DNA of 64,000 nucleotides from Anaerolineae bacterium (lineage in GTDB: Bacteria > Chloroflexota > Anaerolineae > DRVO01). The notes below the pieces were generated by a model. The model worked only from the letters and a program-made list of their open reading frames with translations. It had not been told where the DNA came from and did no database searches. This document shows, piece by piece, positions 11,388-49,961 of the stretch (the first letter of the stretch is position 1; each line of letters opens with the position of its first letter). The stretch covers positions 38,532 to 102,531 of the forward strand of contig JABLXR010000005.1 in assembly GCA_013178015.1 (NCBI GenBank), given 5' to 3'. The translations under genes and the position numbers were made by a program.

Positions 11388-11414
11388 CTCGCTGCATCCT
11401 CTGCGCTCATCGCT

Positions 11415-14022: not shown

Positions 14023-14042
14023 ACTGATCGAGCACGAAAGGC

Positions 14043-14069
14043 AAGCCCCGACCCCACCGGTCGGGGCTT
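14043..14069 (+). terminator. Stem-loop after cspA (AAGCCCCGACC-ccacc-GGTCGGGGCTT)
   Basis: Perfect 11-bp stem about 20 nt after the csp stop. It has no strong U-tract and abuts the GTG start of the next gene. Confidence 0.45.
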
Positions 14070-14071
14070 CT

Positions 14072-30643: not shown

Positions 30644-31011
30644 AGGATGAGACGTTTCACTCCTTGCCTGAGGAGGCGGGTGTTGAGGTTGATGGGCAGG
30701 CCGGCTCTCTTGCCGGTCAGGCGCAGGTAGGTTAGCAGTTGCGCCTCGAAGACCGGATCGTGTCTCTCCACGCTCTCGATCTCCACGATCACGCTGTCGC
30801 CAACCAGCAGGTCGAGGCGGTAGTCACCGATGGGGTGACCATTGTAGACGAAGGGTACGGCCACCTGACGAGCGAACGGGACACGTCGCAGCTGCAGCTC
30901 CGGCGCCAAAGCCTCTTCGTGGGCCACTGCCAGAAGCCCCGGCCCCAAGTGGCGGTGGACCTCGATGGCTGCCTCTATGATCTGTTCGGTCAGCCCGTTG
31001 ATCTCGTCCAA
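30640..31011 (-). CDS. GxxExxY-family protein (PD-(D/E)XK-like), signature residues substituted
   Basis: Family pattern EQIIEAAIEVHRHLGPGLLAVAHEEAL...DYRLDLLVGDSVIVEIESV...AQLLTYLRLTGKRAGLPINLN. The GxxExxY positions read GLLAVAH. TTG start directly after the upstream stop. Confidence 0.7.
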   Translation of the reverse strand: MDEINGLTEQIIEAAIEVHRHLGPGLLAVAHEEALAPELQLRRVPFARQVAVPFVYNGHPIGDYRLDLLVGDSVIVEIESVERHDPVFEAQLLTYLRLTGKRAGLPINLNTRLLRQGVKRLIL

Positions 31012-32013
31012 TCAGCCTCTCTGTGCCTCTGTGCCTCTGTGGCTGGTCTCGACGGCCAGCGTTCGGCGTCGCTTGCGCAGCCACAGGAGCCCGCCGGGGA
31101 GGCTGCTGGTGTAGATGATGAGTTGCATGAGCAGCGAGACGGCGAGCGCTCCCGCGGGCGAGACTACCCCGCCCAGGCTGGAGTAGAGCAGATCGTAGGC
31201 CCCCTGATTGACCCCCAGCCCCCCCAGAGAGGGCACGATCAGAGGAGCGAAGGCGAGCATGGGGTTGAAGAGAAAGACGTATCGCAACGGTATCCCAGCC
31301 CCCACCGCCGTGGCCACCACCCAGTTGACCAGGTTGGAGGTGACGATGACCGCCAGGCCGATGCCGTAGGCCCGGGCCAGGGCGCCGGGATGATCGCGAT
31401 AGGTCTGCAGCGCCTCGGACAGGCGACCGTAGACCGGCTCCAGCCGGGATAGCAGAGGAAGCCGAAAGAGCTGCCCGATGAGCAGCCTGAGCCGGCGGCT
31501 GAAGAGCATCGCCAGGAAGCCGAGCGCTCCAGCGCAGGCAAGCCAGACCACTCCGGCCAGGGGCATCAGGTCGCTGCGACCCCAGCCAAACACGGCCACC
31601 GCCGACATGGCGGCGGCGCTGGTGATGAAGGCGGTGAGGCCCACCAGCCGGTCCACCAGGACGGATATGGCAGCGTCCTCGACGCGACTCAGGTGTCGGG
31701 CCAGGTCATACCCTCGCACCAGGTCGCCCCCTACGTTGGTGGGGAGGAAGTTGCCGAAGAAGAGCCCGGTGAAGGTGAAGGCCAGCAGGTCCGGGTAGGG
31801 CAAGGTCGCGCCCTGGGCCCGCAGGAGCAGGCTCCACTTGGCGGTGTTGAGGGCGATGGCGCCAAAGTACACCGCCAGGGCGGCGACCAGCAGAGGCACC
31901 GAGGCCCCGCCGAGGGTCGCGGCGACGGCATCCAGGTCCACCCGCCAGAGCAAGTAGGCGATCAGCGCCAGGCTAACCGCGATCTTCACCAGGTCTACGG
32001 CCCTCAGCCGCAT
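31012..32013 (-). CDS. Lysylphosphatidylglycerol-synthase-TM-region / flippase-like membrane protein (UPF0104)
   Basis: Start MRLRAVDLVKIAVSLALIAYLLWRVD, then about 8 TM helices. LPG_synthase_TM-like motif GNFLPTNVGGDLVRG. Confidence 0.7.
   Translation of the reverse strand: MRLRAVDLVKIAVSLALIAYLLWRVDLDAVAATLGGASVPLLVAALAVYFGAIALNTAKWSLLLRAQGATLPYPDLLAFTFTGLFFGNFLPTNVGGDLVRGYDLARHLSRVEDAAISVLVDRLVGLTAFITSAAAMSAVAVFGWGRSDLMPLAGVVWLACAGALGFLAMLFSRRLRLLIGQLFRLPLLSRLEPVYGRLSEALQTYRDHPGALARAYGIGLAVIVTSNLVNWVVATAVGAGIPLRYVFLFNPMLAFAPLIVPSLGGLGVNQGAYDLLYSSLGGVVSPAGALAVSLLMQLIIYTSSLPGGLLWLRKRRRTLAVETSHRGTEAQRG
31016..31046. repeat. Inverted-repeat arm CCTCTCTGTGCCTCTGTGCCTCTGTGGCTGG (right arm)
   Basis: Reverse complement of 30612-30638. 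It encodes the last codons (SHRGTEAQRG) of the flippase-like gene. Confidence 0.7.
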
Positions 32014-32065
32014 CGGCGCTCCCTGGAGACTATCCGGCAGGCGGTCGGGCAGCGAAGATTGAGGT

Positions 32066-33043
32066 TCATCGCCGGCTCTGAGGCGCCGCCTGCCCCTCCG
32101 GCGACGGTTCGGGTAGGGCGGCTCTCCGCTTGGAAGGCACCGACCGGGCCCCCACGTCCCCCTTCTGGCTCCAGGCCATGTCCCAGACGACATGGGTGCG
32201 CCGGCGCACGTAGTAGTCGTAGCCGCCTAACACGCGCGACAGCGCCTCCACCATGGCGAGGACCGCCAGGGCATATAGCAGCCACAACGCCGACTTGACC
32301 TCGCGCCAGGCCACCTTCAGCACCAACCGATTGTCCAGGCTGGCCACCTTGTGGCCGTACTTGTCCCTGAGGTAAAGGTGGCCAGCGTAGTTGCGCCGCC
32401 TCTGGCGCACAAAGTCGGTGAACGATTCTGGCCCCAGGTTGTACACCACCGCATCGGGGGCGTAGACCACCTTCAGTCCGCGCTTGATGACCAGGCTCTC
32501 CACAAAGGCCTCGTCCATGGCCACGTCGGGCGGTATGGCGTCGAAGACCTTGCGGAAGGCGATGAGCTCACCCAACCGGGGGATCTCCAGGCACAGGTTG
32601 TGCTCCATGGCCAGGCGCAGGTGGGTGAGGAAGCCCACGATGTGCTCCGGGGTGTTGACGGGCACCTTGTGCGCCCCGGTCATGCCTACCGTGGGGTCTC
32701 GAAACATTCCGATCAGGCTCTCGAAGGTGTCGGGGCCGGGCAGGGTATCCCCGCTCTCCACCGCGCAGATGTCCTCGGTGGCATGCTTGAGGAACACGTT
32801 GACGGCCGAGGTCTTGCCCTCGCGCCTTTCTTGGGTGTAGAGCTCTATGCGAGGGTCCCGGGCCATGAACTCCCGCACGATCTCCTCGGTGCGGTCGGTG
32901 CAGGCACTGGCGACCACTACGATCTGGCTAATCGCGACGGTGCTGAGCTGCTGATCCAACAGGGCCTGGAGGAGCCGGCCGATGTTGGCTTCTTCGTTGT
33001 AGGCGGTGATGCCGACGCTGCAACGGATGATCTGGTCAGTCAT
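32066..33043 (-). CDS. Glycosyltransferase family 2
   Basis: GT-A motifs (SVGITAYNEE; DxD-like ESGDT), with a TM region near the C-terminus. Confidence 0.8.
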   Translation of the reverse strand: MTDQIIRCSVGITAYNEEANIGRLLQALLDQQLSTVAISQIVVVASACTDRTEEIVREFMARDPRIELYTQERREGKTSAVNVFLKHATEDICAVESGDTLPGPDTFESLIGMFRDPTVGMTGAHKVPVNTPEHIVGFLTHLRLAMEHNLCLEIPRLGELIAFRKVFDAIPPDVAMDEAFVESLVIKRGLKVVYAPDAVVYNLGPESFTDFVRQRRRNYAGHLYLRDKYGHKVASLDNRLVLKVAWREVKSALWLLYALAVLAMVEALSRVLGGYDYYVRRRTHVVWDMAWSQKGDVGARSVPSKRRAALPEPSPEGQAAPQSRR

Positions 33044-33057
33044 GCCCCTCACCCAGA

Positions 33058-33082
33058 GCCACAGAGACACGAAGACACGGAG
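33058..33082. repeat. Solo arm-like copy CCACAGAGACACGAAGACACGGAGG
   Basis: Same word family as 30612-30638. It sits just upstream of the GT2 start. I found no partner arm. Confidence 0.35.
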
Positions 33083-33086
33083 GTAC

Positions 33087-33322
33087 TCACCGGCGTTCCC
33101 TCTGGCTGGCGTTCAGCACGGTCACGCCCACCACTTCCCCTTCCTGGTAGCGTATGATGATTCATCATCGGTGAGCTCGGAATCGTCGGCGTGGCTCGGC
33201 TTGCGGAAGTTGATGTAGAGAACGTCTGCCTCCTCATCGTACGTCACCCAGATTCGCTTGTGCGAAACCCCAAGCAGTCCAGGAACGAGAGCCAACACCC
33301 TATCCAACTCTACTGTGGCCAC
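33087..33322 (-). pseudogene. DUF2283-family (antitoxin-like) gene with an apparent 1-nt deletion frameshift
   Basis: Frame 0 gives ...IWVTYDEEADVLYINF...SELTDDE, then stops early. The -1 frame continues IIIRYQEGEVVGVTVLNASQRERR, matching the DUF2283 C-terminal consensus (IILDYDKEG.IIGIEILDAS). The shift lies in an AA run inside the palindrome GATGATGAATCATCATC. Confidence 0.5.
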
Positions 33323-33618
33323 AGCTTCACCCTCCTCTCCAACCGTGCTCTTCGTCGGGTAAGGAAGGCAGTGATGACGAAGCCGTCACTGGCACTCAGC
33401 TCTCGATACACCACCAGATACTTGCCCGGGTCTACTTCTCTTACCGCCAGGCACTCACCTGCGCTACCCTGATAGACCGCCTCGGCTCCTACCACCGCCT
33501 CCAGGACCTCGAAGTAGTAGCCGGCCAATTCGGAGTGTTGCTCAGTGATATGAAACCACCTGTCCTGAGAGAGCCGAATGGGTACACCCTTTCTGGAACT
33601 GACCGTTTCCGAGCTCAT
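33310..33618 (-). CDS. DUF4258-like (toxin-like) small protein
   Basis: 103 aa (IRLSQDRWFHITEQHSE...YLVVYRELSASDGFVITAFLTRR). It overlaps the DUF2283 start and abuts the stop of the second radical SAM gene. Confidence 0.5.
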   Translation of the reverse strand: MSSETVSSRKGVPIRLSQDRWFHITEQHSELAGYYFEVLEAVVGAEAVYQGSAGECLAVREVDPGKYLVVYRELSASDGFVITAFLTRRRARLERRVKLWPQ

Positions 33619-35018
33619 CACCCGAACGCCGTCCGCCAGGCCACCCGCACGGTGCGGGGCAGGTCGCGGTAGGTGCTCCAGCGGGTGAGCTGCCGGAGGA
33701 TGCGGGCGGGGCGCCAGTAGAAGCGGCGATAGGCTTCCTTCCACTTGCGCTCCACCAACTCCGCCGGCAGCCCCGGCATCTCGAAGGCCGCCTTGCCCTC
33801 GAAGAAGGCGTAGTCGTCATAGTCCTTCACCAGGATGCGGCCACCTTGCCTCACCTGCTGGTACATTCGGGTGCCCGGGAAGGGGGTGGCCATGGAGAAG
33901 TTGGCCACTAACGGATCCAGCTCGCAGGCGAAGCGTATGGTGTCGTCTATGGTCTCTTCCGTCTCACCCGGGAGCCCCACTATGAAGAAGCCGATGGTCT
34001 CCATCTTGGCCGCCCGAGCAGCGGCGAAGGCGTGACGGACCTGCTCCAGGGTGAGCTTCTTGCCGATGACATCATCGAGGATGCGCTGATTGCCGCTCTC
34101 CACCCCGAAGGCGGTGCGAACGCAGCCGGCCTGGCGCATCCGCGTCAGCAACTCTTCGTCCACCAGATTGGCCCGGATGCCGTTGATCATGATCCAGGGC
34201 ACGTGGTTGAGCCCCTCCTGGATCAGCCGGTCGCATATGGCCAGCACACGCCTGCGGTCTATGTTGAAGGAATCGTCCAGGACGCCGATCTCCTTCGCCC
34301 CCAGGTCCCGCACCAGCCAGCGCCACTCGGCCACCACGCTTTCGGGGGAGCGAGCCCGCCACAAGCGAGGCCCCGTCTGGCAGCAATAAGAGCAGCTGTA
34401 AGGGCAGCCACGAGAGGTGAGGATAGGGTAGCTGGGGACCCGAGGCGCGTCTATGGTGGGTTGCAGGTTGGTGTAGCGGTCCATCCGGAAATGGTGGTAG
34501 GCCGGGAAGGGCAACCCATCCAGGTCCTTGATGGGCGGGCGCTCACGGTGGTGCCGGACTTGCCCTTCGAGGCGGTGGCTTATCCCGGCTATGCCCTCGA
34601 CGGCAGCCGGCCATTCCTCTCGAACGCGCCCCTCGAGCGCGGCGCACAGCTCCGTCCAGGTGTCCTCACCCTCGCCGCGCACCACGAAGTCCACTCCCGG
34701 TTGGGCCAGGCTCTCCTCCGGAAGCACGCTCGGATGCGGCCCTCCCAGGACGACAGGAGCAGAGGTCAACTCCCGCACCAGAGCTGCGTCCCGCCAGGCC
34801 GACTTGACCTGGATGCTGTTGGCGCTGATGCCTACGATGTCCGGGCCAAACTGGCGCAGGATCTCGGCCAGGCTCTGCCGCTCCACGTTCCCATCGTACA
34901 CGCGCACCTGGTCACCTCGCCTCTCGGACACCGCGGCCAGGTAGGCCAGGCCCAACGGGGGCGAGGTGCGAGTCTCTATGGGCAGATGGACGCGAGGGGC
35001 AACGAGAAGGACTCTCAC
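33618..35018 (-). CDS. B12-binding radical SAM protein, paralog of 29183-30643
   Basis: Cluster motif CPYSCSYC. Same domain order as the first copy, with about 50 % identity by eye. GTG start (VRVLLVAPRV). Confidence 0.85.
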   Translation of the reverse strand: MRVLLVAPRVHLPIETRTSPPLGLAYLAAVSERRGDQVRVYDGNVERQSLAEILRQFGPDIVGISANSIQVKSAWRDAALVRELTSAPVVLGGPHPSVLPEESLAQPGVDFVVRGEGEDTWTELCAALEGRVREEWPAAVEGIAGISHRLEGQVRHHRERPPIKDLDGLPFPAYHHFRMDRYTNLQPTIDAPRVPSYPILTSRGCPYSCSYCCQTGPRLWRARSPESVVAEWRWLVRDLGAKEIGVLDDSFNIDRRRVLAICDRLIQEGLNHVPWIMINGIRANLVDEELLTRMRQAGCVRTAFGVESGNQRILDDVIGKKLTLEQVRHAFAAARAAKMETIGFFIVGLPGETEETIDDTIRFACELDPLVANFSMATPFPGTRMYQQVRQGGRILVKDYDDYAFFEGKAAFEMPGLPAELVERKWKEAYRRFYWRPARILRQLTRWSTYRDLPRTVRVAWRTAFG

Positions 35019-35548
35019 CAGAGACACTCCGGCAGGGCCGCACACGGCCCCGTTCCACGTGTGGAATCGGCGCCAGTATAGCACAGGCCACCGGCGGCCA
35101 AAACCCACGTACACATAACTGAGCCACCAGCGCGCCTGGTCAAGGCACTCTACTGCAGAAGCCGTGCCCGGGCGGCGCCCCTAGCACCGACTGCCGGCAT
35201 CTCGGGATCACCGGTGGCTATGATGTGCCCCTAGGGAGGGCATTGGCGAGCCCCTCATCCAGTGGGGACGGCATGCCGAGCGCCGCCATCCCGCCAAGCC
35301 ACCACCTGGCCGGCATCTCTTCGCCCCTCGGCCGGACAGGCGGTATGATGACTCTGTGGCCCTTGATCGGTATCCGGCACCGATGGGCAGAGGCGGTCCC
35401 GGCCGTGCACGATGTCGGCGTGGCCGAACCCATACGCAACTGGGGCTACCGTGCCGGAGCGCCGGGTGCCATGCTCTCTTGGGACAGGCAGTAGTGGGGA
35501 GGCTAACCTGAGCCTGCTTCCTGCCTTGCGCTGCGACGGAGTGGCTCG

Positions 35549-35974
35549 ATGCTGCAGGTAACACCGGACATAACCATAGATGAGAGCGAGCTAGAGGAGG
35601 AGTTCGTCCGTTCGTCGGGGCCAGGTGGCCAGAAGGTGAACAAGGTGGCCACAGCGGTGCAACTGCGCTTCAACGTTTTCCAGTCTTCCTCGTTGCCCGA
35701 GCCGGTGCGGGAGCGGCTATTGCGGCTGGCGGCCGGGCACATCTCCGACCAGGGTGTGCTCACCATCAACGCCCGCCGCTTTCGCTCCCAGCAGCGCAAT
35801 CGCCAGGACGCGCGCGAGAGGCTGGCGGAACTGGTACGTCAGGCGGCCCGACCGCCACGGCGCCGTCGCCCCACCCGGCCCTCCGCTGCCTCCCGCTCCC
35901 GGCGCCTGGAGAGCAAGCGGCGGCGGGGCGAACTCAAGCGGTTGCGGCGTCCTCCGGCGTCCGATTCCTCGTAG
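35549..35974 (+). CDS. arfB: Alternative ribosome-rescue factor ArfB (peptidyl-tRNA hydrolase, GGQ family)
   Basis: GGQ motif in SGPGGQKVNKVATAV plus a basic C-terminal tail. Confidence 0.8.
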   Translation: MLQVTPDITIDESELEEEFVRSSGPGGQKVNKVATAVQLRFNVFQSSSLPEPVRERLLRLAAGHISDQGVLTINARRFRSQQRNRQDARERLAELVRQAARPPRRRRPTRPSAASRSRRLESKRRRGELKRLRRPPASDSS

Positions 35975-36393: not shown

Positions 36394-37446
36394 CTACAGC
36401 GGCAGACTGACCGGTCGGCCCTCGCGAGCGGACCTGTAGATGGCTAGGTTGACCTCCACGGCCTTACGGGCTTCCCGTCCGTCTATCATGGGGGTGCCGC
36501 CCTCCTCGATAGCTCGGATGAAGGCGGCGATCTGATCCACGTGGGCGTCCACCGCCGGACGGCGCAGCGCCGCCCTGGGATCGGCAGCCCCGGTGACGCT
36601 GGCGCCTTTCCCCGTGTCCTCGGGCTTGGGCATGCCCTCTACGTCCCAGTAGGTGACCTCATCGGAGACGAGGAAGATGTTGCCCTTCTCCCCATGCAGG
36701 TCCATGCGGGCCGGTAGCCCCTTGTAGATCGAAGTGCTGGCCTGGATGGTGCCGATGGAACCATCCAGAAAGCGGACAGCCGCCACGGCCACGTCCTCCA
36801 CTTCAATCCGCTCGTGGTGGGCGGCGATGTCGGCGTAGGCGAAGACCTCCTTCACCCCGCCCATGATCCACTGGATCAGGTCCACATAGTGCACCCCCTG
36901 ATTCATGAGGGCGCCGCCGCCGTCCCACCGCCAGGTGCCGCGCCATTCGTCGCCATCGTAGTAGGACTGGGCCCGATACCAGGGGACGAAGGTGTTGCCG
37001 ATCACCATCTTCCCCATAGCCCCACTGGATACCGCCTGCTTGGCGGCACGGTACGATGGGTAGCTGCGGAACTGATGCACCGCTCCTAGCTTGACCTGGT
37101 TGTCCTCGCAGGCCTCGATAAGCCGATCTATGGCCTCCAGAGTCACGTCTATCGGCTTGGTGACGAATACGTGCTTGCCCGCCCGGGCCGCTTCCACCCC
37201 CACCTGAGCGTGCCGGCCGCTCCACACCACCACATCCACGATGTCTACGTCGCCGCGGGCAAGCACGTCCTTGAGGTCATAGCAGGGCTGGGCGCCGTAC
37301 TTGGCGGCCAGCTCATCCGCCTTCTCCTTGACCACGTCACACACGGCCACCAAGCGCGCGTTCGGCAGGGCGCTGATAGCTTCGGTGTGCACCGGCGCGA
37401 TGACGCCCGCGCCCACTAGGGCTATGCCATACTGCTTCCCTGACAT
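36394..37446 (-). CDS. Gfo/Idh/MocA-family NAD(P)-dependent oxidoreductase
   Basis: Rossmann motif IALVGAGVIAPVH and a GFO_IDH_MocA C-terminal domain. Start MSGKQYG, with GGAGGTG upstream. Confidence 0.85.
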   Translation of the reverse strand: MSGKQYGIALVGAGVIAPVHTEAISALPNARLVAVCDVVKEKADELAAKYGAQPCYDLKDVLARGDVDIVDVVVWSGRHAQVGVEAARAGKHVFVTKPIDVTLEAIDRLIEACEDNQVKLGAVHQFRSYPSYRAAKQAVSSGAMGKMVIGNTFVPWYRAQSYYDGDEWRGTWRWDGGGALMNQGVHYVDLIQWIMGGVKEVFAYADIAAHHERIEVEDVAVAAVRFLDGSIGTIQASTSIYKGLPARMDLHGEKGNIFLVSDEVTYWDVEGMPKPEDTGKGASVTGAADPRAALRRPAVDAHVDQIAAFIRAIEEGGTPMIDGREARKAVEVNLAIYRSAREGRPVSLPL

Positions 37447-37566
37447 CGCTGCACCTCCACTGATCTTGAGGAGGTGGAACAAGCAGCGGGCGGCACGCGT
37501 CCGCGCTCGTGGCACCCCGGAGGACGAGGCTAGCTCAGCCGCTGAGCTGTGTCAACGCGCTGGATA

Positions 37567-38033: not shown

Positions 38034-38044
38034 TTGTGGTATAA
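38034..38044 (+). promoter_or_regulatory. Extended -10 promoter element TGTGGTATAAG upstream of the GT4 gene
   Basis: Identical 11-mer to the csp promoter. It lies about 175 nt upstream of the GT4 ATG, in a 770-nt non-coding stretch. Confidence 0.4.
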
Positions 38045-38217
38045 GATACATGAAAGGTACTCTAACCCTACTGCGGGACCGGAGGGCCTCGGCGGTGATC
38101 CTGCCGGACCCTAGGCCCTGAACTTGCAGACAGACCTTCGCCCATCTCCTCCACGGGCGGGGAAGGCCCACCGGTCTGGCGGCGCACCGGGAGTCTACCA
38201 GGGAGTATCTGACAGAG

Positions 38218-39447
38218 ATGGCGGAACTGAGGGTCTGTCTCGCGACTGACTGCTATCAGCCCGGAATTGGAGGGATCGAGAACCACGTCCGCAGCCTGGC
38301 CCAGGGTCTGGCCGAAGCTGGGCACCAGGTGGACGTGGTCACTCACCGGGCGCCCTCGGTCGGACACACGGCCTGCGTCGCTCCAGCAGACGGTGGCGAT
38401 GGCTTCCGGGTTCTGCGCCTGGAAGGGGCAGTCGTGTCGTATGGGGGCGCCGACCCCATGGTGGACCCCCGGGTGTTCGGGCGCGTTTACCGCCTTCTGC
38501 AGGGCAGCGGTTACGACATTGTCCACGGCCACTCCTTCGAATCGCTACTGGTGCTGGGGGCCCTGCGGGCGGCCACCCGGCTGGGCATTCCCACGCTGCT
38601 CACTAAGCACTCTATGACCGCGCGGGCTAACCGCCCCGCCCTCTTCAACCGGCTGGCGGTAGCGGCCGAGAAACGGGTGGCGGCACGATGGACGCTGGGG
38701 CTCATCGTGCTCAGCGCTGCTGGTGTCAGAGAGATGGCCGGAGCGGGAGTCCCCATTCACCTGGTTCACGGAGGGGTGGACGCCCAGCGCTGGCGGCCCA
38801 ACCGCGAACTTCGGGTCCGGACCCGGGAGCGGCTGGGATACCGGCCGGAGGAACTGGTGATCGGCTACCTAGGTCGCCTGGTCTCTTCTAAAGGCGTGCT
38901 CAGCCTGATAGAGGCGGTCGCCCCGCTGATGCAGACGGCGAATCACCTGCGGCTTCTCTTGGCAGGAGACGGCCCCCTTCTTCCTGAGCTCAGGCGGCGG
39001 TTGCGCAGCCTGGGTCTGGAGGGGAGGACACTGATGATCGGCGCCGTGCCCTGGGCCGAGACGCCCGCCTACTTGAATGCCATGGACGTGTTTGCCTTCC
39101 CCAGCTACACTGAGGCGTTCGGACTGGCACTGCTCGAGGCTATGGCCTGCGGCCTCCCGACAGTGGCCCGAGAAAGCGCCGGCACCGAGGAGCTCGTGCA
39201 AGACGAGCGCACCGGATTCCTAGTGCGGACGGATCTGGAGCTACGCCAACGGCTAGAGAGACTGATCCAGGACGCAGAGCTGCGTCGCCGAATAGGGCGA
39301 GAGGGGCGTGCCCTGGCCGAGTCCCGGTTCAGCTGGGCGGGCATGGCCTCGACGACGGCCGCCATCTACCAGGAGACCATGCAGCAGGCTCTAGCCCGGC
39401 GGTCCCCTTCCGCTATGGGAAGCGAGCGGGTGAGCCTGCCCAAGTGA
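38218..39447 (+). CDS. Glycosyltransferase family 4 (PIG-A/MshA/BshA-like retaining GT-B)
   Basis: N-terminal GT4 motif (CLATDCYQPGIGGIENHV) and a C-terminal EAFGLALLEAMACGLP EX7E motif. Confidence 0.85.
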   Translation: MAELRVCLATDCYQPGIGGIENHVRSLAQGLAEAGHQVDVVTHRAPSVGHTACVAPADGGDGFRVLRLEGAVVSYGGADPMVDPRVFGRVYRLLQGSGYDIVHGHSFESLLVLGALRAATRLGIPTLLTKHSMTARANRPALFNRLAVAAEKRVAARWTLGLIVLSAAGVREMAGAGVPIHLVHGGVDAQRWRPNRELRVRTRERLGYRPEELVIGYLGRLVSSKGVLSLIEAVAPLMQTANHLRLLLAGDGPLLPELRRRLRSLGLEGRTLMIGAVPWAETPAYLNAMDVFAFPSYTEAFGLALLEAMACGLPTVARESAGTEELVQDERTGFLVRTDLELRQRLERLIQDAELRRRIGREGRALAESRFSWAGMASTTAAIYQETMQQALARRSPSAMGSERVSLPK

Positions 39448-39457
39448 AGGACCCCCT

Positions 39458-40987
39458 GTGTTCCGGCGACATTCAGGAGCAAGCCTATCGGTGAGCCTAC
39501 GGCGGCTGCGCGCCCTTGATTCGGGAGCCGGCAACTCCATCGGCAGCGAGAGGGAGAGCGGCCGGCGACGATGGGGGACCATTGGGCGCGTCCTGCTCCT
39601 TCTGGCCATCCTTTCAATCGTCCTGGTCAGCGCCAACCTGTACGTGGGACGCCTCGCGGCCCTGCCCGCTCCCTTCATTGACGACCTGGCGAACGCCGAG
39701 AACATCATGAGGTTGCTGGTGATCTCGCCTCACCCGGACGACGAGGTGATCGCGGCCGGCGGGCTGATGCAGCAGGTACTCCAGCGAGGGGGCGAGGTGC
39801 GCGTGGTCATCGTCACCAGCGGCGATGGCTCCCTGACCGGAACCATGGTCGAGTTCCGCCGCCCTCCCCGGTCAACCGACTACATTCAGTCCGGGCTCAA
39901 CCGGCAGCAGGAATCGCTCCGCGCCTTGGCTACCCTGGGTGTGGCGCCCGGTATGGTGGAGTTCCTCGGCTACCCGGACCGGGGCATTCAGGCTCTCTGG
40001 TGGAACTACTGGGAGGACACTGACCCTTACCGCTCGCCCTTCACCCGACTGGCTCACAGCCCCTATCCCCTCACCTACAATCCGTCCTCGGTCTACTCGG
40101 GGCAGTCTCTGCTGGCCGACCTGCGGACCATCCTGAGTCAGTTCCAACCGGACACGGTTGTAGCGCCCCATTTTGAGGATAGCCACCCGGACCATTGGGC
40201 TACGGGCGCGTTTGCCGCCCTCGCCCTGGCCATGGAGCGCCCGGATCCGATGCCCCGGCTGCTTCTGTACCTGGTTCATCGGGGAGACTTCCCCACGCCC
40301 AGGGGCTACCTCCCCTTCGCTCCGCTCTTGCCTCCCCTCAGGCTGGTTAACGACGGAGTCTACTGGCAGAAGCTGACCTTGACCGACGAGCTGGTCAGGG
40401 TCAAGGGCGAGGCCATGGAACAGCACCGCAGCCAGCTGCCCCTGCTGGGCGCGTTCCTTCGCTCCTTCGTGCGCCAGAACGAGCTATTCTGCGAACTGAA
40501 CTACGCCGGCGCTCTGATGCTGGTGGAAGACCAGCCGGTGACACCAGTGGTCACCGACTGGGTCTTGGCGGACGAGGCCGAACTGCGGCCGGTTCTGTGG
40601 GACTCGGTGGGGGACACTCTCACCCAGGAGTTAGGCCCGGGCACCGATTTCGTCGCCCTCTACGTGGCCACCACGGCCGAGGAGGTATGGATAGCAGCCG
40701 AGCTCAGAGGGGGCTCCAGCCCCCTGGTCGAGTACCGGGCTTTCGTGCGCGCTGCCGATGGCGAGAACGCGTCCCGCGCTCGCGTGCTCTACCCCGTCCG
40801 GCTCATGCCTCGGCCCCGAGATCAGGCCCGCGGTCGTTTCCTGCTGGCCCGGTTCCGGCTGGACGAGCTGAGTAACCCGCACACGGTAGTGGTCAGCTTC
40901 GAGGCTGCCTATCCGCGCGGGCGCGTCGTTGACCGCATCGGCTGGATAGCGGTGAGCCTGGAGGACCAGGCTGTCCCTGCCTTCTGA
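39458..40987 (+). CDS. PIG-L/LmbE-family N-acetylglucosaminyl deacetylase, membrane-anchored, with an extended C-terminal region
   Basis: N-terminal TM (VLLLLAILSIVLVSANL) and a PIG-L motif (LLVISPHPDDEVIAAGG). A second His motif (HFEDSHPDHWA). About 250 extra C-terminal residues of unknown function. Confidence 0.75.
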   Translation: MFRRHSGASLSVSLRRLRALDSGAGNSIGSERESGRRRWGTIGRVLLLLAILSIVLVSANLYVGRLAALPAPFIDDLANAENIMRLLVISPHPDDEVIAAGGLMQQVLQRGGEVRVVIVTSGDGSLTGTMVEFRRPPRSTDYIQSGLNRQQESLRALATLGVAPGMVEFLGYPDRGIQALWWNYWEDTDPYRSPFTRLAHSPYPLTYNPSSVYSGQSLLADLRTILSQFQPDTVVAPHFEDSHPDHWATGAFAALALAMERPDPMPRLLLYLVHRGDFPTPRGYLPFAPLLPPLRLVNDGVYWQKLTLTDELVRVKGEAMEQHRSQLPLLGAFLRSFVRQNELFCELNYAGALMLVEDQPVTPVVTDWVLADEAELRPVLWDSVGDTLTQELGPGTDFVALYVATTAEEVWIAAELRGGSSPLVEYRAFVRAADGENASRARVLYPVRLMPRPRDQARGRFLLARFRLDELSNPHTVVVSFEAAYPRGRVVDRIGWIAVSLEDQAVPAF

Positions 40988-41018
40988 TCCGGCTCGGAGA
41001 CGGGCCGCCGTCGTCCGC

Positions 41019-41804
41019 GTGCGTCCCTATCGCCCCAGCGACCGGGAGGCTGTGCGCTGCCTTTACGCCGACACCGCTTTCTTCGGGGAACCGGTAGAGG
41101 CTTACTTCGACGACCGCAAGCTCTTCGCCGACCTGGGTGTGAGCCTCTACCTGGATCACTACCCCGACTACGCCTTCGTGGCCAGGCAGGTTACAGGGGA
41201 TAGGTTACAGGTGACAGGGGACAGGTTACAGGGAGTGGCCCACGGGACCGAGAGAGGCCCGTCCTCACCCTGTCCCCTATCCCCTGTCCCCTGTAACCTA
41301 TCCCCTGTCACCTGTAACCTATCCGGGTACATTGTGGGGAGCCCGCACGGGGATGCCGACGTGCATCGGCACCTGATGGCGCACCTTCCTGCTATCGTGG
41401 GAAGGCTGGTGCGGGGACGCTACCGCCTGGGCCGCAAGACCATGCTCTACTACCTGGACAACGCCCTGGCCTGGCTGCGAGGGCAGCTGCTGGAGATCCG
41501 CGACCCCGCCTATCCCGCCAACCTGCACATCAACGTCGCCTCGTCTCACCGAGGGCAGGGCCTGGGATGGGAACTGTTGTCCGCTTACCTGGAGCACCTG
41601 CAACGCTGCGGGGTGCCGGGGGTGCACGCGGTCACCACGGATCACAGTCGAGGTGCCGTCAGGCTCTTCCAGAAGGCTGGCTTTCGGCTCTTGGAAGAGA
41701 AGAGCACCTCGGTGTGGCGCCGGCACCTGGGCCGGCAGGTGAGGCTGCTTGGGTTCGGCCTGCGGCTGGATCAGGACGGGCCACCGCCGAGGCGGCCATC
41801 CTAG
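41019..41804 (+). CDS. GNAT-family N-acetyltransferase carrying an in-frame 45-codon repeat insertion
   Basis: GNAT motifs (HINVASSHRGQGLGWELL; FQKAGF). The insertion QVTGDRLQVTGDRLQ...PVTCNLSG sits between beta strands. Confidence 0.7.
   Translation: MRPYRPSDREAVRCLYADTAFFGEPVEAYFDDRKLFADLGVSLYLDHYPDYAFVARQVTGDRLQVTGDRLQGVAHGTERGPSSPCPLSPVPCNLSPVTCNLSGYIVGSPHGDADVHRHLMAHLPAIVGRLVRGRYRLGRKTMLYYLDNALAWLRGQLLEIRDPAYPANLHINVASSHRGQGLGWELLSAYLEHLQRCGVPGVHAVTTDHSRGAVRLFQKAGFRLLEEKSTSVWRRHLGRQVRLLGFGLRLDQDGPPPRRPS
41189..41325. repeat. Intragenic imperfect palindromic element of GTTACAGG/GACAGGG-word type
   Basis: Left arm GGTTACAGGGGATAGGTTACAGGTGACAGGGGACAGGTTACAGGGAG. Right arm CCCTGTCCCCTATCCCCTGTCCCCTGTAACCTATCCCCTGTCACCTGTAACC. 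The GNAT reading frame is preserved through it. Confidence 0.6.
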
Positions 41805-42044
41805 GGTTCGACGGCCACCGATGACAGTTGCCGTCTGCGTCAGGGCCACCGTCAGCTCCAGACCCGAGCTCTGATCGGCACCCTCACTGGGCATCGAGTT
41901 TACGTAATCTTTACGAGAGATTTACGGTAGAGGGACTACCCATCTCCCCCACGGTTGCTCCACACTTATGTCGAGGCGCCCCAGGGTCCGGTCAGCCCAC
42001 CAACTTCAGTGACCGGATCCGACCCCAGGGGCGCGGGGGGAACA

Positions 42045-44417
42045 GTGTTCGCCAACCGAAGACCGTGCCGGGGTATTGTCCCGACGGCATTGGCTGTCGT
42101 TCTGCTGCTAAGCCTGGTGCTGCAGAGCATGGCATCGGCCCAGTCTCCGTCCGGGCCCATGGCCTTTGGGTCTCGTCTCGACGCCGACGTCGTCGCCATG
42201 TTGCCTTACCAGATCGAGGGCGACATGTGGGGGGTCATGTACCACGGGGACCTAAGTAAGGTGGAGAGGCCACTCTCGATCGTGCCCGCCTACACTCGCA
42301 TGTTCATGACTCCCACCCTGGATGGGGTAGAGGAGGCCCTGTCCCGGCTCAGCATCGAGGTGGCCTACCTGGGGTACGACCTGGAGCGCTGGGATCAGAC
42401 TCCCATCTGGGAGCAGGAGAACCCGGTGGAAGCGGTGAGGCGTATGCGGGACATCGCTCGCGCTCACGGGCTGCAGTTCGTGCTGGGGCCGTCGCGCTAC
42501 TTCAACGTGAACTTCGCCGCGGAAATGGCGCCCTACGTGGACATCTACATCCCCCAGGCCAAGGCCTACCAGGCCAACCTGAGCCTGGACGAGTATCGCG
42601 ACACCCTACGCAGCCTATTCACCACCATCAAGCAGGCCAATCCCAACGTGAGCATCTGGCTGGACGTGGCCCCCAACCCCAAGGGCGTGCCCAAGACGGC
42701 GCAGGAGATGATGGACTGCGTCAATGCCGTGCGCGACCTCATTGATGGCGTCTGGGTCACCCCCACGCAGGACGATGGTACCGTCATGCGGGAGTTTCTG
42801 AGGCTGCTGGGGCGCACCGATGCCCCAGAGTCCACGCCTACGAACACGCCCACGCGTCAGCTCACGGCGACCTCGACTCCGACGCACCAACCAACAGCTA
42901 CTCCCACCAGTACTCCTACGCGTCAGCCCACGGCCACTCCCACCGCCACCACGCGGCCCGCCTACACTCCTACCGCCACCTATGCGCCCACATCCATGCC
43001 CACTGCGACGCCGTACGTCCCCCCGACCAGCGCGGTGACTCCTATCCCGACGTCCACGCCCACCGCCTCCGCGACGCCGGCCACTCCTGAACCCACCTCC
43101 ACGGCTACTGCCACCCCGCTGCCCCCGCCGGCCTCGGCGCCGGAGGTCCTGCCCGACCTCAGAGGGGGGAGAGTTAGGGTCAAGCCCCTATCGCTGGAGC
43201 CGGAGGGCTGGAACTGCGACGTGAGCGTATCCATCAGGAACCAGATCCCGGCCGCGGCTCAGGACTTCGTGGCCGCCGCGAGCATAGCGGCCGAGGACCG
43301 GCCGGACACCGTCCTGTTCCAAGCCCTCTGGAGCGTGGACTACCTCGGGTCTCGAGAGACGATCGTCCTCTCCCAGTCGGTGGTGATCCCGGCGGGCCAG
43401 TACGTCATCTGGCTGGACCCCAACATCGGCGGCCCCAACGGTGAACCCATCGCCGAGGCCGACACGAGCAACAACCGGAGCGGCCCCTACTCTTTCACTC
43501 TGACAGGGACCTATCGCGGCAATGGGAACGGTTCCTCGGCTCAGCAGAAGGCCGAGTCCGGCGCTACCGAACCCGCTGGCCCGCCACCGCTCAGCCCCAG
43601 TCCGGCGCCGTCCACACCTCTTCCCGCGGCCGGGACAGAGGCGGCGCCTTCTGCTCCATCGTCGGAGGCGGGAGCGGCACCTGACGCCACCCCGACCACG
43701 CCACCGGCTACCGTGGCGCCCGAGGTGCCGGTGGAGGCCACGGCCACCGCGCCGACGCCGCCCCCAGCAGTGCCGACCCCAACCCTGGAGGCTACCAAGC
43801 CGGTGGCTCCCCCTGCCGAGCCGACGAGACCCCCGGCCACGAAGGAAAGACCCACCGCTCCGGCCACGGTCGCGCCCATTGTGGCCCCCACGGCCACACC
43901 CGTCCCCACTGCTACCGCGGTGCCCCTGCCCGAGCCGACTGACACACCCATACCTGAGCCCACCGCCGAGCCGACGGCCACGCCGGTGCCGGAGGCCACC
44001 ACAGCCTCATACTACGTGGACGCCAGAAGCGGGAACGACGGGAATTCGGGCGCCAGCCCCGACCAGCCGTGGCGTAGTTTGGCCCGGTTGGCAGCTGTCC
44101 AGTTGCAGCCGGGCGACGTGGTCCACTTCGCTCGCGGCTCGCGCTGGGACGAGGGGCTGGTGATAGACGAGGCTGGCTCGCCCGAGCGGCCCATCGTCTT
44201 CAGGGCCTACGGCGAGGGCAGGCCACCGGTGTTCCGCAGCCCGGGCCCACCCTCGTTCGCCCCCTCTATCGAGGTCCGTGCTCCCTGGGTTACTTTAGAG
44301 GGCCTCCTGGCCCGGGAAGGTCCCCACAACGCGGGCATCAGCATCGCCAGTGGGTTGGAGGGCGTCTCGCTGGTGGACTGCCAGGTGGTAGGAGGGCCAG
44401 AGGACGGAGCCGACTGA
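42045..44417 (+). CDS. Large secreted protein with Pro/Thr-rich linkers, a CARDB-like domain and a C-terminal right-handed beta-helix-like domain
   Basis: GTG start and signal peptide ([30 protein letters not shown]). Two long PT/PTAT linker tracts. C-terminal [16 protein letters not shown]...GISIAS. Confidence 0.65.
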
Positions 44418-44486: not shown

Positions 44487-45920
44487 CTATCTGCTACCAG
44501 CCTCGGTCAGCATCTGCTGTAGAGCCGTCCGGAAGTCATCGAGGGGCAGGGATCCGCGTAGGATCCGTCCCTGCCCGCCGTAGAGGACGATGAAAGCGGG
44601 AGTGCTGCTCACCACGCCCTGGCCGTCCTGCATGTCGCTGAGGACGGGCTCGAGAGATCCGCGGCTGTCCAGACACTCGCGGAATTGGTCCTGGCTCAGG
44701 CCTAACTCTTGGGCCAGGGCCACCAGTGTCGCGTCGGGGCTTTGCTGTGTCCAGCGGTCTACGGTGCGGAAGAGGAGTTCGTACATCTCCCAGAACCGTC
44801 CCTGAGCGGCGGCGCACTCGGCAGCGGCGGCCGCCACCGGAGCCTGGGGATTCGTCTGCGCCGGCATGTGCTTGAACACCCACATCACTCGACCTGTGTC
44901 CACGAACTCCTCATCCAGGGCCGGCTGTACCTCCAGGGAGTGTTGGCGGCAGGGCAGGCACTGGAAGTCGGTGAACTCCACCACCACCAAGGCCGCCTCA
45001 GGGTCACCCTTGTACTGGTCTCCTGCCAGGGTATAGCCGGGGCGCTCCGGGTCAGGAGCCAGGCCTTCGCTGCTGGCCCAGTAGGGCAACTGGGGCGCCT
45101 CTGCCTCCTCCGCCTCTGGCTGAGGTGGGGCCTCTCCCGCCAACAGGGCCTCTATCCAGGCAGTGAAGGTATCCAGGGACTCGGCGCCCACCAGGATGTA
45201 GTCCTCGCCGGTCTCGTTCTGGACGAACTGGAAGCTGGGCGTGCTCCCGATCCCCAGGGCCTGACCGGCGGCCAGGCTGGCCTGGATGGAGGCATTGCTG
45301 CGGCCCGAGGTTATGCATCGGGTGTAGACCTCGCCGTCGGCGCCTACCTCCGTGGCTAGGTCCGCGAAGTAGCCGGTGGGGTCGGGCAGGGAAGCCCACT
45401 GGTTCTGGCGGAGGAAGAGCTCCTCGTGCATCTGCCAGAACAAGGCCGGGCCCTGCTCCGCCACGCAGAGGGCCGCCGAGGAGGCGTTGGTGGCGTTCGG
45501 GTGCAGGGAGGGCAGGGGGAAGTCGCGGAAGATGAAGTTCACCTGCCCGCCGGGGCCGTACGTCTCCACCAGGGCGGGGAAGGTCTGGACGGAGTGGCGG
45601 GCGCAGAAGGGGCACTGATAGTCGCTGAACTCGATCAGGGTGACGGGTGCGTCGGGGTCCCCCAGGAGGGGGAAGCCTTCCTGGGTGAGGCTAGTCTCGA
45701 CTCCGTGGAACAGGCCCGACTGGGCCGAGATGGGCGAAGCCTGGGTGGAAGTCGAAAGAGCGGTCGGGCTCGCCAGGGCGGCGGTGGGGCTGGCGGCTGG
45801 CTCCTGGGTGGGCGGGGTTGCTTCCTCACCGGAGCAGCCCGACGCCAGGACGGCGATGGTCAGCAACACCGCGACGGCAATCCGGCTCCCGATTGAGACA
45901 CGCAATGACTGCACGGACAT
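44487..45920 (-). CDS. Lipoprotein with two DsbA/thioredoxin-like domains
   Basis: Lipobox LASGC and two CxxC motifs (CPFC, CLPC), each in a DsbA-like context. Confidence 0.75.
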   Translation of the reverse strand: MSVQSLRVSIGSRIAVAVLLTIAVLASGCSGEEATPPTQEPAASPTAALASPTALSTSTQASPISAQSGLFHGVETSLTQEGFPLLGDPDAPVTLIEFSDYQCPFCARHSVQTFPALVETYGPGGQVNFIFRDFPLPSLHPNATNASSAALCVAEQGPALFWQMHEELFLRQNQWASLPDPTGYFADLATEVGADGEVYTRCITSGRSNASIQASLAAGQALGIGSTPSFQFVQNETGEDYILVGAESLDTFTAWIEALLAGEAPPQPEAEEAEAPQLPYWASSEGLAPDPERPGYTLAGDQYKGDPEAALVVVEFTDFQCLPCRQHSLEVQPALDEEFVDTGRVMWVFKHMPAQTNPQAPVAAAAAECAAAQGRFWEMYELLFRTVDRWTQQSPDATLVALAQELGLSQDQFRECLDSRGSLEPVLSDMQDGQGVVSSTPAFIVLYGGQGRILRGSLPLDDFRTALQQMLTEAGSR

Positions 45921-48635: not shown

Positions 48636-49961
48636 GTGATGCTGATGGACTGCTGTGTCGGCCTGTACGTCCATATCCCCTTCTGCCGGCGGAAGTGCTC
48701 CTACTGCGACTTCGTCTCCGTGCCCGGGCACGAGGAGCTCTGGCGACCATACCTCGAGGTCCTGCTGGAAGAGATCGCCGCCCTGCCTCCCCGATGGCCG
48801 CGCACCCTCTACCTGGGCGGGGGCACCCCCACCCTCTGGCCCGCCGCACACCTGGCCTCTCTGATCGCCGCTGCCCACGCCGTCGGGTTGCCGGGGGACG
48901 CCGAGGTCACGGTGGAGGCCAACCCGGGGACGGTAGACGCGGCCAAGCTGGCCGCCCTCCGCGCCGCCGGCTGCAACCGGCTCAGCCTGGGGGTGCAGAG
49001 CACGTTCGAGGAGGAGCTACGGCTCTTGGGCCGGGTGCACACCTTCGCCCAGGCGCAGGAGGCGGTGCGACTGGCTCGGGCTGCCGGATTCGACAACCTC
49101 AGCCTGGACCTGATCTACGGGCTGCCGGGCCAGCGGCTGGCCCGGTGGGAAGCCGACCTGGACCGAGCTCTGGAGCTGGGAAGCGAGCACCTCTCCCTCT
49201 ACTGCCTGTCCCTGGAGCCCGGCACTCTCCTGGAGGCAGCGGTTCGCTGCGGAGACCTGCCCTGCCCCGATGCCGACTTGGCGGCGGACATGTACCTGGC
49301 CTCGGAGGATCGCCTAGCGCGGGCCGGCTACGGACACTACGAGATCTCCAATTGGGCCCGGCCGGCGAGAGAACCTAACCCCCCGGCCTCCTTCGCTGGA
49401 GGGGAAGGGAGAGCCAGACCGCCTCTTGCTTCCCACAATGGGGGCCAGGGAAGAGATCGCCTCAGAGGAGACCAGACCACCCTTCGGCTGAGCGGAAAGG
49501 AGCCGGTCCCCTCGTCTTCCGAGTGTGGAGGGGAGGCCGGGGAGGAGGGTTCTCCACTTCTCTTGACCTGCAAGCACAACTTGATATACTGGCGGAACGA
49601 GCCCTATGTGGGTCTGGGCGCGGGCGCTCATTCCTTCCTCGATGGTCGCCGCTTCGCGCGTGTGGATAGCCCCGAGGCCTACGTGGCTGCTACTCCTGAG
49701 GGCCGTGTGGTCTTTTCCGAAGGCGTGGATCGGTCGCTGGAGATGGCTGAGACGGCCATTCTCGGGCTCAGGTTGGTGGCCGGGCTGGAGAGAGCGCGGT
49801 TCCGGTCTCGCTTCGGTGAGGATCCGGTGGAGAGCTACCGGGAGCCCATCCGTTGGGCGACGGACCGGGGCCTGCTGGTGTACGATCAGTGCAGCGTCCG
49901 CCTGACCAGGCGTGGACGTCTCTTGAGCAACGAGGTCTTCGAGCGCTTTCTACCCGACTGA
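48636..49961 (+). CDS. hemW: Radical SAM heme chaperone HemW (HemN-like) with an in-frame insertion of about 65 aa
   Basis: Cluster motif CRRKCSYCDF and HemW C-terminal motifs (CKHNLIYWRNEPYVGLGAGAHSF). A low-complexity insertion at 49368-49565 is absent from canonical HemW. Confidence 0.8.
   Translation: MMLMDCCVGLYVHIPFCRRKCSYCDFVSVPGHEELWRPYLEVLLEEIAALPPRWPRTLYLGGGTPTLWPAAHLASLIAAAHAVGLPGDAEVTVEANPGTVDAAKLAALRAAGCNRLSLGVQSTFEEELRLLGRVHTFAQAQEAVRLARAAGFDNLSLDLIYGLPGQRLARWEADLDRALELGSEHLSLYCLSLEPGTLLEAAVRCGDLPCPDADLAADMYLASEDRLARAGYGHYEISNWARPAREPNPPASFAGGEGRARPPLASHNGGQGRDRLRGDQTTLRLSGKEPVPSSSECGGEAGEEGSPLLLTCKHNLIYWRNEPYVGLGAGAHSFLDGRRFARVDSPEAYVAATPEGRVVFSEGVDRSLEMAETAILGLRLVAGLERARFRSRFGEDPVESYREPIRWATDRGLLVYDQCSVRLTRRGRLLSNEVFERFLPD

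Follow-up and report, generated by a model that had tools for sequence, protein, structure and literature searches.

A conserved Anaerolineae operon combines a GT4 glycosyltransferase, a PIG-L-family deacetylase predicted to face outward and a GNAT acetyltransferase: a putative system for amino-sugar envelope glycoconjugates

Introduction

The charge of the cell surface, resistance to lysozyme and antimicrobial peptides, and the architecture of the envelope are governed by cationic amino-sugar lipids and by wall glycans that have been de-N-acetylated. It is only recently that genes for the synthesis of aminoglycolipids were identified, in two model pathogens. In Pseudomonas aeruginosa, gpgSDF encodes a family 4 glycosyltransferase (GT4), a deacetylase and a flippase which make the glucosamine (GlcN) lipid GlcN-PG (PMC12713373). 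HexSDF of Clostridioides difficile produces aminohexosyl-hexosyl-diradylglycerol, and an extracellular site was proposed for its deacetylase, HexD (PMC10128005). Here we describe an operon of three genes in a 64,000-nucleotide stretch of an Anaerolineae genome (assembly GCA_013178015.1, contig JABLXR010000005.1, positions 38,532 to 102,531; hereafter the window). It encodes a GT4 enzyme, a membrane-anchored zinc de-N-acetylase of the PIG-L/LmbE superfamily and a GNAT-family N-acetyltransferase. We tentatively propose that the operon makes and modifies an amino-sugar-bearing glycoconjugate of the cell envelope, most likely a membrane glycolipid. All functional claims for the operon are inferred.

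The order of a GT4 synthase and a de-N-acetylase, which in GpgSDF turns an N-acetylglucosamine (GlcNAc) lipid into a cationic GlcN-lipid, recurs in the window, and the MprF/UPF0104-type flippase of that system has a counterpart at a related locus (L003, see below). However, GpgD belongs to the COG3233 deacetylases and is predicted to lie in the cytoplasm, whereas the window enzyme is a transmembrane (TM)-anchored LmbE/PIG-L protein predicted to lie outside; the window GT4 scores far below the GpgS cut-off, and the window operon lacks a flippase gene and has an additional GNAT gene. With HexSDF the locus shares the logic of a glycosyltransferase that adds an N-acetylhexosamine (HexNAc) to a glycolipid and a deacetylase, modelled as working on the outer face, that makes the amino sugar after flipping, which changes the charge of the envelope. 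Here, too, the enzymes differ: HexS is MGDG-synthase-like and HexD is annotated as a polysaccharide deacetylase where the window has GT4 and PIG-L, HexF is encoded in the operon, and HexSDF has no GNAT partner. Of the synthase, deacetylase and MprF-type flippase that make up such a system, the window operon contains the first two, and at L003 the genes for flippase, GT4 and PIG-L follow one another; the deacetylase family is unlike that of both known systems.

Eukaryotic PIG-A and PIG-L likewise join a GT4-class GlcNAc transferase to a PIG-L zinc de-N-acetylase with a single N-terminal TM segment. The window proteins depart from them in a sub-threshold PIGA score, an extra immunoglobulin (Ig)-like domain and a catalytic domain predicted to be extracytoplasmic. 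MshA, MshB and MshD of mycothiol synthesis, and BshA and BshB of bacillithiol synthesis, belong to the same superfamilies and come in the same order, and the LmbE fold and metal/catalytic motifs are the same; in contrast to them, the window deacetylase is membrane-anchored and predicted to face outward, the GNAT has a single domain, and all scores fall far below the respective cut-offs.

The closest structural references for the third protein are the acetyltransferases SsAT and OgAT, whose structures were determined to model the pseudo-HAT domain at the C-terminus of human O-GlcNAcase (OGA) (PMC3919268, PMC4263850). Both bind acetyl-CoA, and the acceptor pocket of SsAT is of small-molecule size (PMC3919268); genomic context is discussed in neither paper. 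Acetyltransferase modules of the GNAT type, coupled to hexosaminidases, are known to N-acetylate glucosamine (PMC4680927). The window GNAT resembles SsAT and OgAT in alignment and in a conserved acetyl-CoA loop, but it carries a 45-aa insert encoded by a DNA hairpin and is genomically linked to a GlcNAc-type deacetylase.

Results and Discussion

Operon organization and conservation

Open reading frames (ORFs) and Pfam agree on the trio that the initial annotation had read from the sequence:

38218–39447, plus strand: retaining-type GT4 glycosyltransferase, 409 aa (Pfam)
39458–40987, plus strand: PIG-L/LmbE (CE14-type) zinc de-N-acetylase, membrane-anchored, 509 aa (Pfam, AlphaFold2 (AF2), Foldseek)
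41019–41804, plus strand: GNAT N-acetyltransferase, SsAT/OGA-pseudo-HAT-like, 261 aa (Pfam, phmmer)

Only 10 nt separate the GT4 and deacetylase genes and 31 nt the deacetylase and GNAT genes, which is consistent with a single operon. The NCBI annotation of the window proteins is generic ("glycosyltransferase family 4 protein", "GNAT family N-acetyltransferase"). At species level, the deacetylase finds its best genome match in another Anaerolineae metagenome-assembled genome (MAG), at 74% identity. We delimited the window's clade as those loci whose deacetylase is at least 56% identical to that of the window:

L005: deacetylase 74% identical; GT4, deacetylase, GNAT
L001: deacetylase 65% identical; GT4, deacetylase, GNAT
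L085: deacetylase 63% identical; GT4, deacetylase, GNAT
L087: deacetylase 57% identical; half-length GT4, deacetylase, GNAT
L086: deacetylase 57% identical; deacetylase, GNAT
L003: deacetylase 56% identical; NTP_transferase, LPG_synthase_TM, GT4, deacetylase, no GNAT

The idea that the three genes are inherited together stands for the Anaerolineae clade, the full trio occurring in the window, L001, L005 and L085, and in L087 with its half-length GT4. Many GT4 orthologues and GNAT matches have a longest contig of exactly the same length as that of a deacetylase match, which serves only as a proxy for location on one contig. A single-protein metagenome scan was dominated by the generic PHPDDE pattern and returned only relatives of at most 41% identity; it contributed to the neighbor statistics below but left the close clade unsampled.

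Neighbor statistics were compiled over flanks of 7–10 kb for the deacetylase family at large, at 166 loci from many phyla in two collections. An SsAT-like GNAT stands beside the deacetylase at 28 loci and is its commonest cross-phylum partner, ahead of GT4, which adjoins it at 10. An HGSNAT-like (PF07786) membrane acetyltransferase adjoins the deacetylase at 12 of the 166. Every instance of either acetyltransferase is on the strand of the deacetylase and no more than 1.5 kb from it, and because flanks of 7–10 kb were searched, this exclusive adjacency is not due to chance. Linkage of deacetylase and acetyltransferase is recurrent but not obligatory.

The loci with a multi-pass HGSNAT_cat protein directly beside a TM-anchored PIG-L, all from more distant relatives, are L002, L006, L008, L034, L051, L059, L071, L111–L114 and L117, and an SsAT-like GNAT is additionally present in L006 and L034. 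This recurrent PIG-L/HGSNAT_cat pairing has no described function.

The deacetylase

The deacetylase is built of three parts:

39578–39646, plus strand: signal-anchor/TM helix, residues ~41–63, Kyte–Doolittle (KD) hydropathy 2.6, with an Arg-rich segment before it
39710–40492, plus strand: LmbE-fold catalytic domain, residues 85–345 (AF2, Foldseek, motifs)
40493–40984, plus strand: C-terminal Ig/fibronectin type III (FN3)-like beta-sandwich, residues 346–509 (separate AF2 model)

Membership of the PIG-L/LmbE (CE14) superfamily is clear from the Pfam score (PF02585, 1e-25, residues 87–255, 91 bits against a cut-off of 28.2), the LmbE fold and the metal/catalytic motifs (A/S)PH(P/C)DDE and HxDH. 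The AF2 model, built with 92 homologues (pLDDT 90.7), comprises an N-terminal helix (residues 30–67) that includes the TM segment, the LmbE fold (85–~345) and a separate all-beta domain. The PH(P/C)DDE and HPDH motifs are invariant in the 92 homologues (H92, D94, D95, H243, D245, H246) and align with those of solved enzymes. With its fold and invariant motifs intact, the enzyme is taken to be catalytically competent. Its N-terminal anchor, a single hydrophobic segment, is as originally described. The C-terminal extension of about 250 aa that had seemed unexplained is in part an effect of the short Pfam model, since the LmbE fold runs on to residue ~345; what is truly additional is the Ig-like domain at 346–509. 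Modelled alone, this domain of ~160 aa reaches a pLDDT of 90.4, and a fold search against the PDB gave nothing significant (best E 5e-3, to LacZ beta-sandwich domains, NPC2 and FN3). Assignment to a carbohydrate-binding module or a lipid-binding family was considered and dropped, the beta-sandwich matches being non-significant.

Two independent signals in the sequences bear on the orientation of the protein. Among the 92 homologues, the 15 residues before the TM segment contain on average 4.1 Lys and Arg residues vs 0.86 in the 15 residues after it, and the N-terminal side is the richer in 84 of them; by the positive-inside rule, this bias indicates an N-in/C-out arrangement. Secondly, the alignment columns of residues 413 and 463, both in the beta-sandwich, contain Cys together in 54 homologues, in neither position in 38, and in one position only in none. 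Such perfect covariation would be expected of two cysteines joined in a structural disulfide, and hence of an extracytoplasmic domain; the window protein itself has Ala and Leu at these positions rather than the Cys pair. In the AF2 model, ~20 residues separate the TM helix from the catalytic domain. We predict that the catalytic and Ig-like domains both lie outside the cytoplasm on a type-II anchor.

A 477-aa protein encoded on the minus strand (44487–45920), with a conserved counterpart in L005, contains two Thioredoxin_4/DsbA-like stretches (Pfam 1e-47). It may be a disulfide oxidoreductase working outside the cytoplasm and, as such, relevant to the covarying Cys pair of the deacetylase homologues.

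Foldseek matches of the catalytic domain were Dbv21, Orf2*, MshB, the diacetylchitobiose deacetylase Dac and BshB (E 1e-10 to 1e-7). As Dbv21 and Orf2* lead this list, one may ask whether the operon swaps or tailors the N-acyl group of a glycoside, as in teicoplanin and A40926 synthesis (glycosyltransferase, Orf2*/Dbv21 deacetylase, acyltransferase) or by the logic of lipid A, with the GNAT adding a different acyl group. The gene order agrees with this idea. On the other hand, MshB, Dac and BshB match the structure nearly as well; the pocket and P-loop of SsAT are of the acetyl-CoA type (PMC3919268); and a GNAT inside the cell cannot directly follow a deacetylase that is predicted to work outside it. 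Nor are nonribosomal peptide synthetase, polyketide synthase or other biosynthetic-cluster genes found nearby, the locus lying in conserved synteny amid housekeeping genes near dnaA. We regard an acyl swap as improbable, more so than the glycosylphosphatidylinositol (GPI)-like pathway considered next.

The glycosyltransferase

The first protein exceeds the gathering scores of both Glycos_transf_1 (7e-36, 123.8 bits, cut-off 26.4) and Glyco_transf_4 (5e-25, 89 bits, cut-off 28.5), placing it in the GT4 family with its GT-B fold; the Pfam GT4-conflict match (2e-11) is weaker than these generic models. Closer assignment was sought with curated models, all of which it scores below: MshA (TIGR03449) at 112.8 vs 462.5 bits, BshA (TIGR03999) at 103.3 vs 273.7, GpgS (NF053787) at 65.8 vs 480 and Pfam PIGA (PF08288) at 18.2 vs 27. 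The nearest PDB sequences, MshA, sucrose-phosphate synthase (SPS), BshA and PimB', are about equally distant (~70–90 bits). Its orthologue group is small and sharply bounded, with ~32 clusters at 39–66% identity and 251–890 bits and the next score at 125 bits. By hydropathy, neither the GT4 nor the GNAT has a hydrophobic segment, and both are taken as cytoplasmic. PADLOC defense models matched none of the five proteins tested.

The N-terminal half of the GT4 is basic, with a median pI of 9.35 vs 7.35 in the C-terminal half. This was considered as a sign of membrane association and is given little weight, as an anionic soluble acceptor would fit equally.

A GT4 followed by a PIG-L member is also the order of a true GPI-like pathway, in which the GT4, as an analogue of PIG-A, would make GlcNAc-phosphatidylinositol and the deacetylase would convert it into GlcN-phosphatidylinositol, as in eukaryotes and some archaea. 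The N-terminal TM anchor of the deacetylase, the faint PIGA similarity of the GT4 enzymes of the window and of L085, and the basic N-terminal half just described would all suit such a pathway. However, the PIGA cut-off is missed and the predicted topology does not fit: in eukaryotic PIG-L the catalytic domain lies on the cytoplasmic face, opposite to the orientation predicted here. Furthermore, no inositol-phosphate synthase or phosphatidylinositol synthase was found in scans of most window ORFs of at least 200 aa or in the conserved neighborhood, and a literature search on amino or inositol lipids of Anaerolineae found nothing usable. A GPI-like pathway is thus improbable. What stands of the initial comparison with PIG-A and PIG-L is the chemical analogy, that is, GlcNAc transfer and then de-N-acetylation of a membrane-associated glycoconjugate.

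The gene order had also prompted a second proposal, that of a mycothiol- or bacillithiol-type pathway to a low-molecular-weight thiol, with the trio corresponding to MshA, MshB and MshD or, in part, to BshA and BshB. MshA and BshA are indeed among the better, though sub-threshold, NCBIfam matches of the GT4 and among its nearest solved sequences. However, the deacetylase falls far short of MshB (TIGR03445; 21.9 vs 224 bits), BshB1 (TIGR04001; 42.8 vs 182.5), BshB2 (TIGR04000; 31.5 vs 195) and Mca (TIGR03446; 21.4 vs 277), so that the profile comparison with the PIG-A/MshA/BshA and MshB/BshB subfamilies, suggested at the outset as a check, ended with every curated cut-off missed. An outward-facing deacetylase, if the prediction holds, would also rule out a role in a cytoplasmic thiol pathway. 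The GNAT does not fit either. MshD has two tandem GNAT domains; the window protein has a single GNAT domain of ~215 aa plus an insert and scores 17 bits against the MshD cut-off of 163.1 (TIGR03448). Finally, Pfam scans of most, though not all, window ORFs of at least 200 aa contained no MshC- or BshC-like cysteine ligase, in agreement with the initial annotation, which had seen none. We consider a thiol pathway very improbable, the least likely of the readings discussed here, and that part of the original proposal is disfavored.

The acetyltransferase and its insert

Pfam recognizes Acetyltransf_1 in the GNAT (2e-8). With its insert removed, the protein matches S. sviceus SsAT (PDB 4BMH) in phmmer at E 3e-14, residues 1–179 of the query aligning with SsAT 60–241, and the match to O. 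granulosus OgAT (3ZJ0) is weak (E 2e-4). The similarity to 4BMH, together with the intact acetyl-CoA P-loop (HRGQGLG, of the form R-G-Q-G-L-G), places it in the SsAT/OGA-pseudo-HAT-like subfamily. This subfamily has 359 representatives at E < 1e-30, nearly all of them stand-alone proteins of ~215–230 aa. Among the top 150 there are three long proteins, one with Formyl_trans_N and two with no recognizable partner domain, and there is no fusion to PIG-L or to a glycoside hydrolase.

The full-length window protein aligns with SsAT in two blocks with the insert exactly between them:

41187–41314, palindromic, no strand assigned: in-frame hairpin insert in the GNAT ORF, with GGKKAYA heptamers

The insert of ~135 nt adds ~45 aa (QVTGDRLQVTGDRLQ...CPLSPVPCNLSPVTCNLS). 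Its inverted-repeat arms (41187–41238 and 41263–41314) are 87% complementary, and its RNA folds at -99.5 kcal/mol (z = -9.6). It is unique to the window GNAT, being missing from SsAT and from 15 aligned GNAT homologues, and no further copies were found in the window or in 170 related loci. The insert looks like a MITE- or RPE-like palindromic element that landed in a coding gene.

A putative pathway for an envelope glycoconjugate

Under the interpretation that we tentatively favor, the soluble GT4 would work at the cytoplasmic face, adding a HexNAc (probably GlcNAc, with UDP-GlcNAc as donor) to an acceptor associated with the membrane, and the product would be flipped to the outer face. There, the type-II anchored LmbE/PIG-L zinc hydrolase would strip off the N-acetyl group, leaving cationic GlcN. 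The cytoplasmic SsAT-type GNAT would be a glucosamine or glucosaminide N-acetyltransferase which re-acetylates GlcN material re-entering the cytoplasm, in turnover or tuning, and in other lineages the HGSNAT-like transmembrane acetyltransferase would occupy its place beside the deacetylase. This re-acetylation role is the weakest part of the model; we hypothesize it by analogy with the glucosaminide N-acetyltransferases documented as partners of hexosaminidases (PMC4680927).

L003 offers the strongest hint of a lipid substrate. At this locus, genes for an NTP_transferase, an LPG_synthase_TM protein (MprF-type flippase), GT4 and PIG-L stand in a row, so that the flippase gene is directly upstream of the GT4 gene, and an MGDG-synthase-like gene lies 3.5 kb downstream. 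The combination of synthase, deacetylase and flippase genes resembles the arrangement of gpgSDF (PMC12713373) and hexSDF (PMC10128005).

Several observations weigh against a glycolipid pathway in the window. Its operon has no flippase gene. The nearest LPG_synthase_TM gene (31012–32193, minus strand, beside a GT2 gene), a divergent member detected by Pfam and missed by tblastn with the L003 flippase, is not counted in the system because it lies on the opposite strand at a distance of 6 kb and is not near the operon in L001 or L005. With its Ig-like domain, the deacetylase would suit a polymer no less than a lipid. It is not self-evident why one operon should encode both a deacetylase and an N-acetyltransferase, and the 45-aa insert might impair the window GNAT. 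Distant deacetylase homologues are mostly orphans or stand beside unrelated genes (in Deinococcus pimensis, a Thermaceae MAG and Dehalobacter the gene is an uninformative orphan), and a PIG-L neighbor was absent at all three distant GNAT homologues examined.

A polymer substrate is a serious rival. The outward deacetylase may act on GlcNAc of peptidoglycan or of a secondary wall polysaccharide, as a CE14 stand-in for PgdA, PgaB or IcaB. By re-acetylating GlcN termini in the course of turnover, the GNAT and HGSNAT-like proteins would then open the way for N-acetylglucosaminidases, and the GT4 would either build the polymer or be only loosely coupled to the system. The predicted outside topology and the Ig-like domain fit well with such a role, as does the finding that the commonest partners of the deacetylase are acetyltransferases rather than GT4. 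Neighbors at other loci point the same way, with GT-C/PMT_2 proteins in L085, a GH39-like protein in L087, and ABC exporters and a large protein resembling glycoside hydrolases in Syntrophobacteraceae, and glucosaminide re-acetylation ahead of hexosaminidase cleavage is established (PMC4680927). However, in the window's clade the GT4 is tightly linked to the deacetylase (the 10-nt gap, a specific orthologue group), and GT4 enzymes stand outside peptidoglycan synthesis. Moreover, the L003 operon carries a gene of the lipid-flippase type, and the window operon lacks a polymerase, an exporter (Wzx, Wzy or ABC) and an initiating transferase. On this evidence, we judge the wall-polymer interpretation unlikely, though the one most to be reckoned with beside the glycolipid.

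The proposal that the product is an amino-sugar glycoconjugate, most likely a lipid, can also be put in a bolder form. The SsAT/OGA-pseudo-HAT-like GNATs might in general be glucosaminide N-acetyltransferases functionally paired with de-N-acetylases of surface GlcNAc glycoconjugates, and the operon might serve to switch the charge of an Anaerolineae membrane glycolipid reversibly between GlcNAc and GlcN forms, by means of an outward-facing PIG-L-type enzyme. We offer this as speculation with a rather small chance of being right, below that of the wall-polymer role and above that of the GPI-like, acyl-swap and thiol pathways, which become progressively less likely in that order.

Promoter and leader

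The initial annotation had the operon transcribed from a promoter with a long leader, and a candidate is present:

38036–38045, plus strand: GTGGTATAAG, an extended -10-like motif and candidate operon promoter, 173 nt upstream of the GT4 ATG

The pattern GTGSTATAAR occurs once in each of L001 and L005, 154 and 167 nt before the orthologous GT4 starts in spacers that are otherwise poorly conserved, and the window contains 2 matches where 0.07 are expected. These counterparts and the rarity of the motif support the promoter call, although a scan with the sigma-70 consensus did not call GTGGTATAAG. The leader of ~170 nt has no excess of structure over shuffled sequences (z = 0.12) and no Rfam match at E <= 1 upstream of GT4. 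A structured leader or riboswitch before the GT4 gene, considered as a candidate, was rejected on these grounds.

Elsewhere in the window GTGGTATAAG occurs just once more (13633–13642, plus strand), slightly inside the annotated start of a BNR/Sortilin-like ORF of 794 aa (13508–15892). It may be the true promoter of that gene, with a later start codon.

Genomic neighborhood

Directly 3' of the GNAT gene, an 820-aa secreted protein is encoded (41955–44417, plus strand), with a signal peptide and long Pro/Thr-rich linkers. Its C-terminal region weakly resembles the start of the lacto-N-biosidase LnbX (NCBIfam 8e-12, far below the cut-off), and it has no Pfam domain; it is kept in L005 (63% identity) and not in L001. 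About 8 kb downstream of the operon are genes for a HemN-like radical SAM protein (48636–49961, plus strand) and dnaA (50238–51596, plus strand), and the arrangement in L001 is identical. This common arrangement indicates that the operon lies near a probable replication origin, amid housekeeping genes.

Upstream, an ArfB-like RF-1-domain protein of 141 aa (35549–35974, plus strand) and a divergent GFO/IDH/MocA oxidoreductase (36394–37515, minus strand) are syntenic with the operon in L001 and L005 and absent in L085, L086, L087 and L003. They are probably mere conserved neighbors. The LPG_synthase_TM gene mentioned above belongs to a minus-strand cluster of four (29183–35114):

29183–30643, minus strand: B12-binding radical SAM protein
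31012–32193, minus strand: LPG_synthase_TM/MprF-flippase-like protein (Pfam 8e-37)
32066–33070, minus strand: GT2
33618–35114, minus strand: B12-binding radical SAM protein

This cluster is possibly a separate system for lipid or polyprenol-sugar modification; in L001 and L005 it does not stand beside the operon. Genes related to corrinoids occur at scattered places in the window (8523–12092, 24502–25638 and 60246–61277). They include a RACo-type reductive activator (8523–10199), a DUF1638 protein (11415–12092), two homologues of URO-D/MtaA-like methyltransferases and several B12-binding radical SAM enzymes, which together suggest corrinoid-dependent methyl-transfer metabolism.

In L085, three large PMT_2 (ArnT/PMT-like GT-C) proteins are encoded directly 3' of the orthologous trio (9148–15464, minus strand), one containing a PA14 domain and another NHL repeats, a hint that in the L085 genome lipid-linked sugars are used for glycosylation at the periplasmic face.

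Implications

The locus is unusual in its CE14 enzyme, which is predicted to face outward and ends in an Ig-like domain, and in the recurrent acetyltransferase partner, a relative of the OGA pseudo-HAT domain. If the operon serves ordinary wall deacetylation, the value of these findings would be limited to a better annotation of a widespread family now labelled just "PIG-L family deacetylase". The pairing with GNAT or HGSNAT-like proteins gives a testable acceptor hypothesis, namely GlcN-glycosides, for two families that have no known bacterial substrate. Among bacterial proteins, the SsAT-type GNAT family stands closest to the pseudo-HAT domain of human OGA, and if the charge switch outlined above is real, it would provide the first functional clue to the ancestry of that domain in human O-GlcNAcase. 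It would also represent a third independent enzymatic route to aminoglycolipids, beside HexSDF and GpgSDF. The locus suggests that Chloroflexota, and possibly many phyla with a TM-anchored LmbE protein, reach aminoglycolipid chemistry by way of a different deacetylase family, one predicted to lie outside the membrane.

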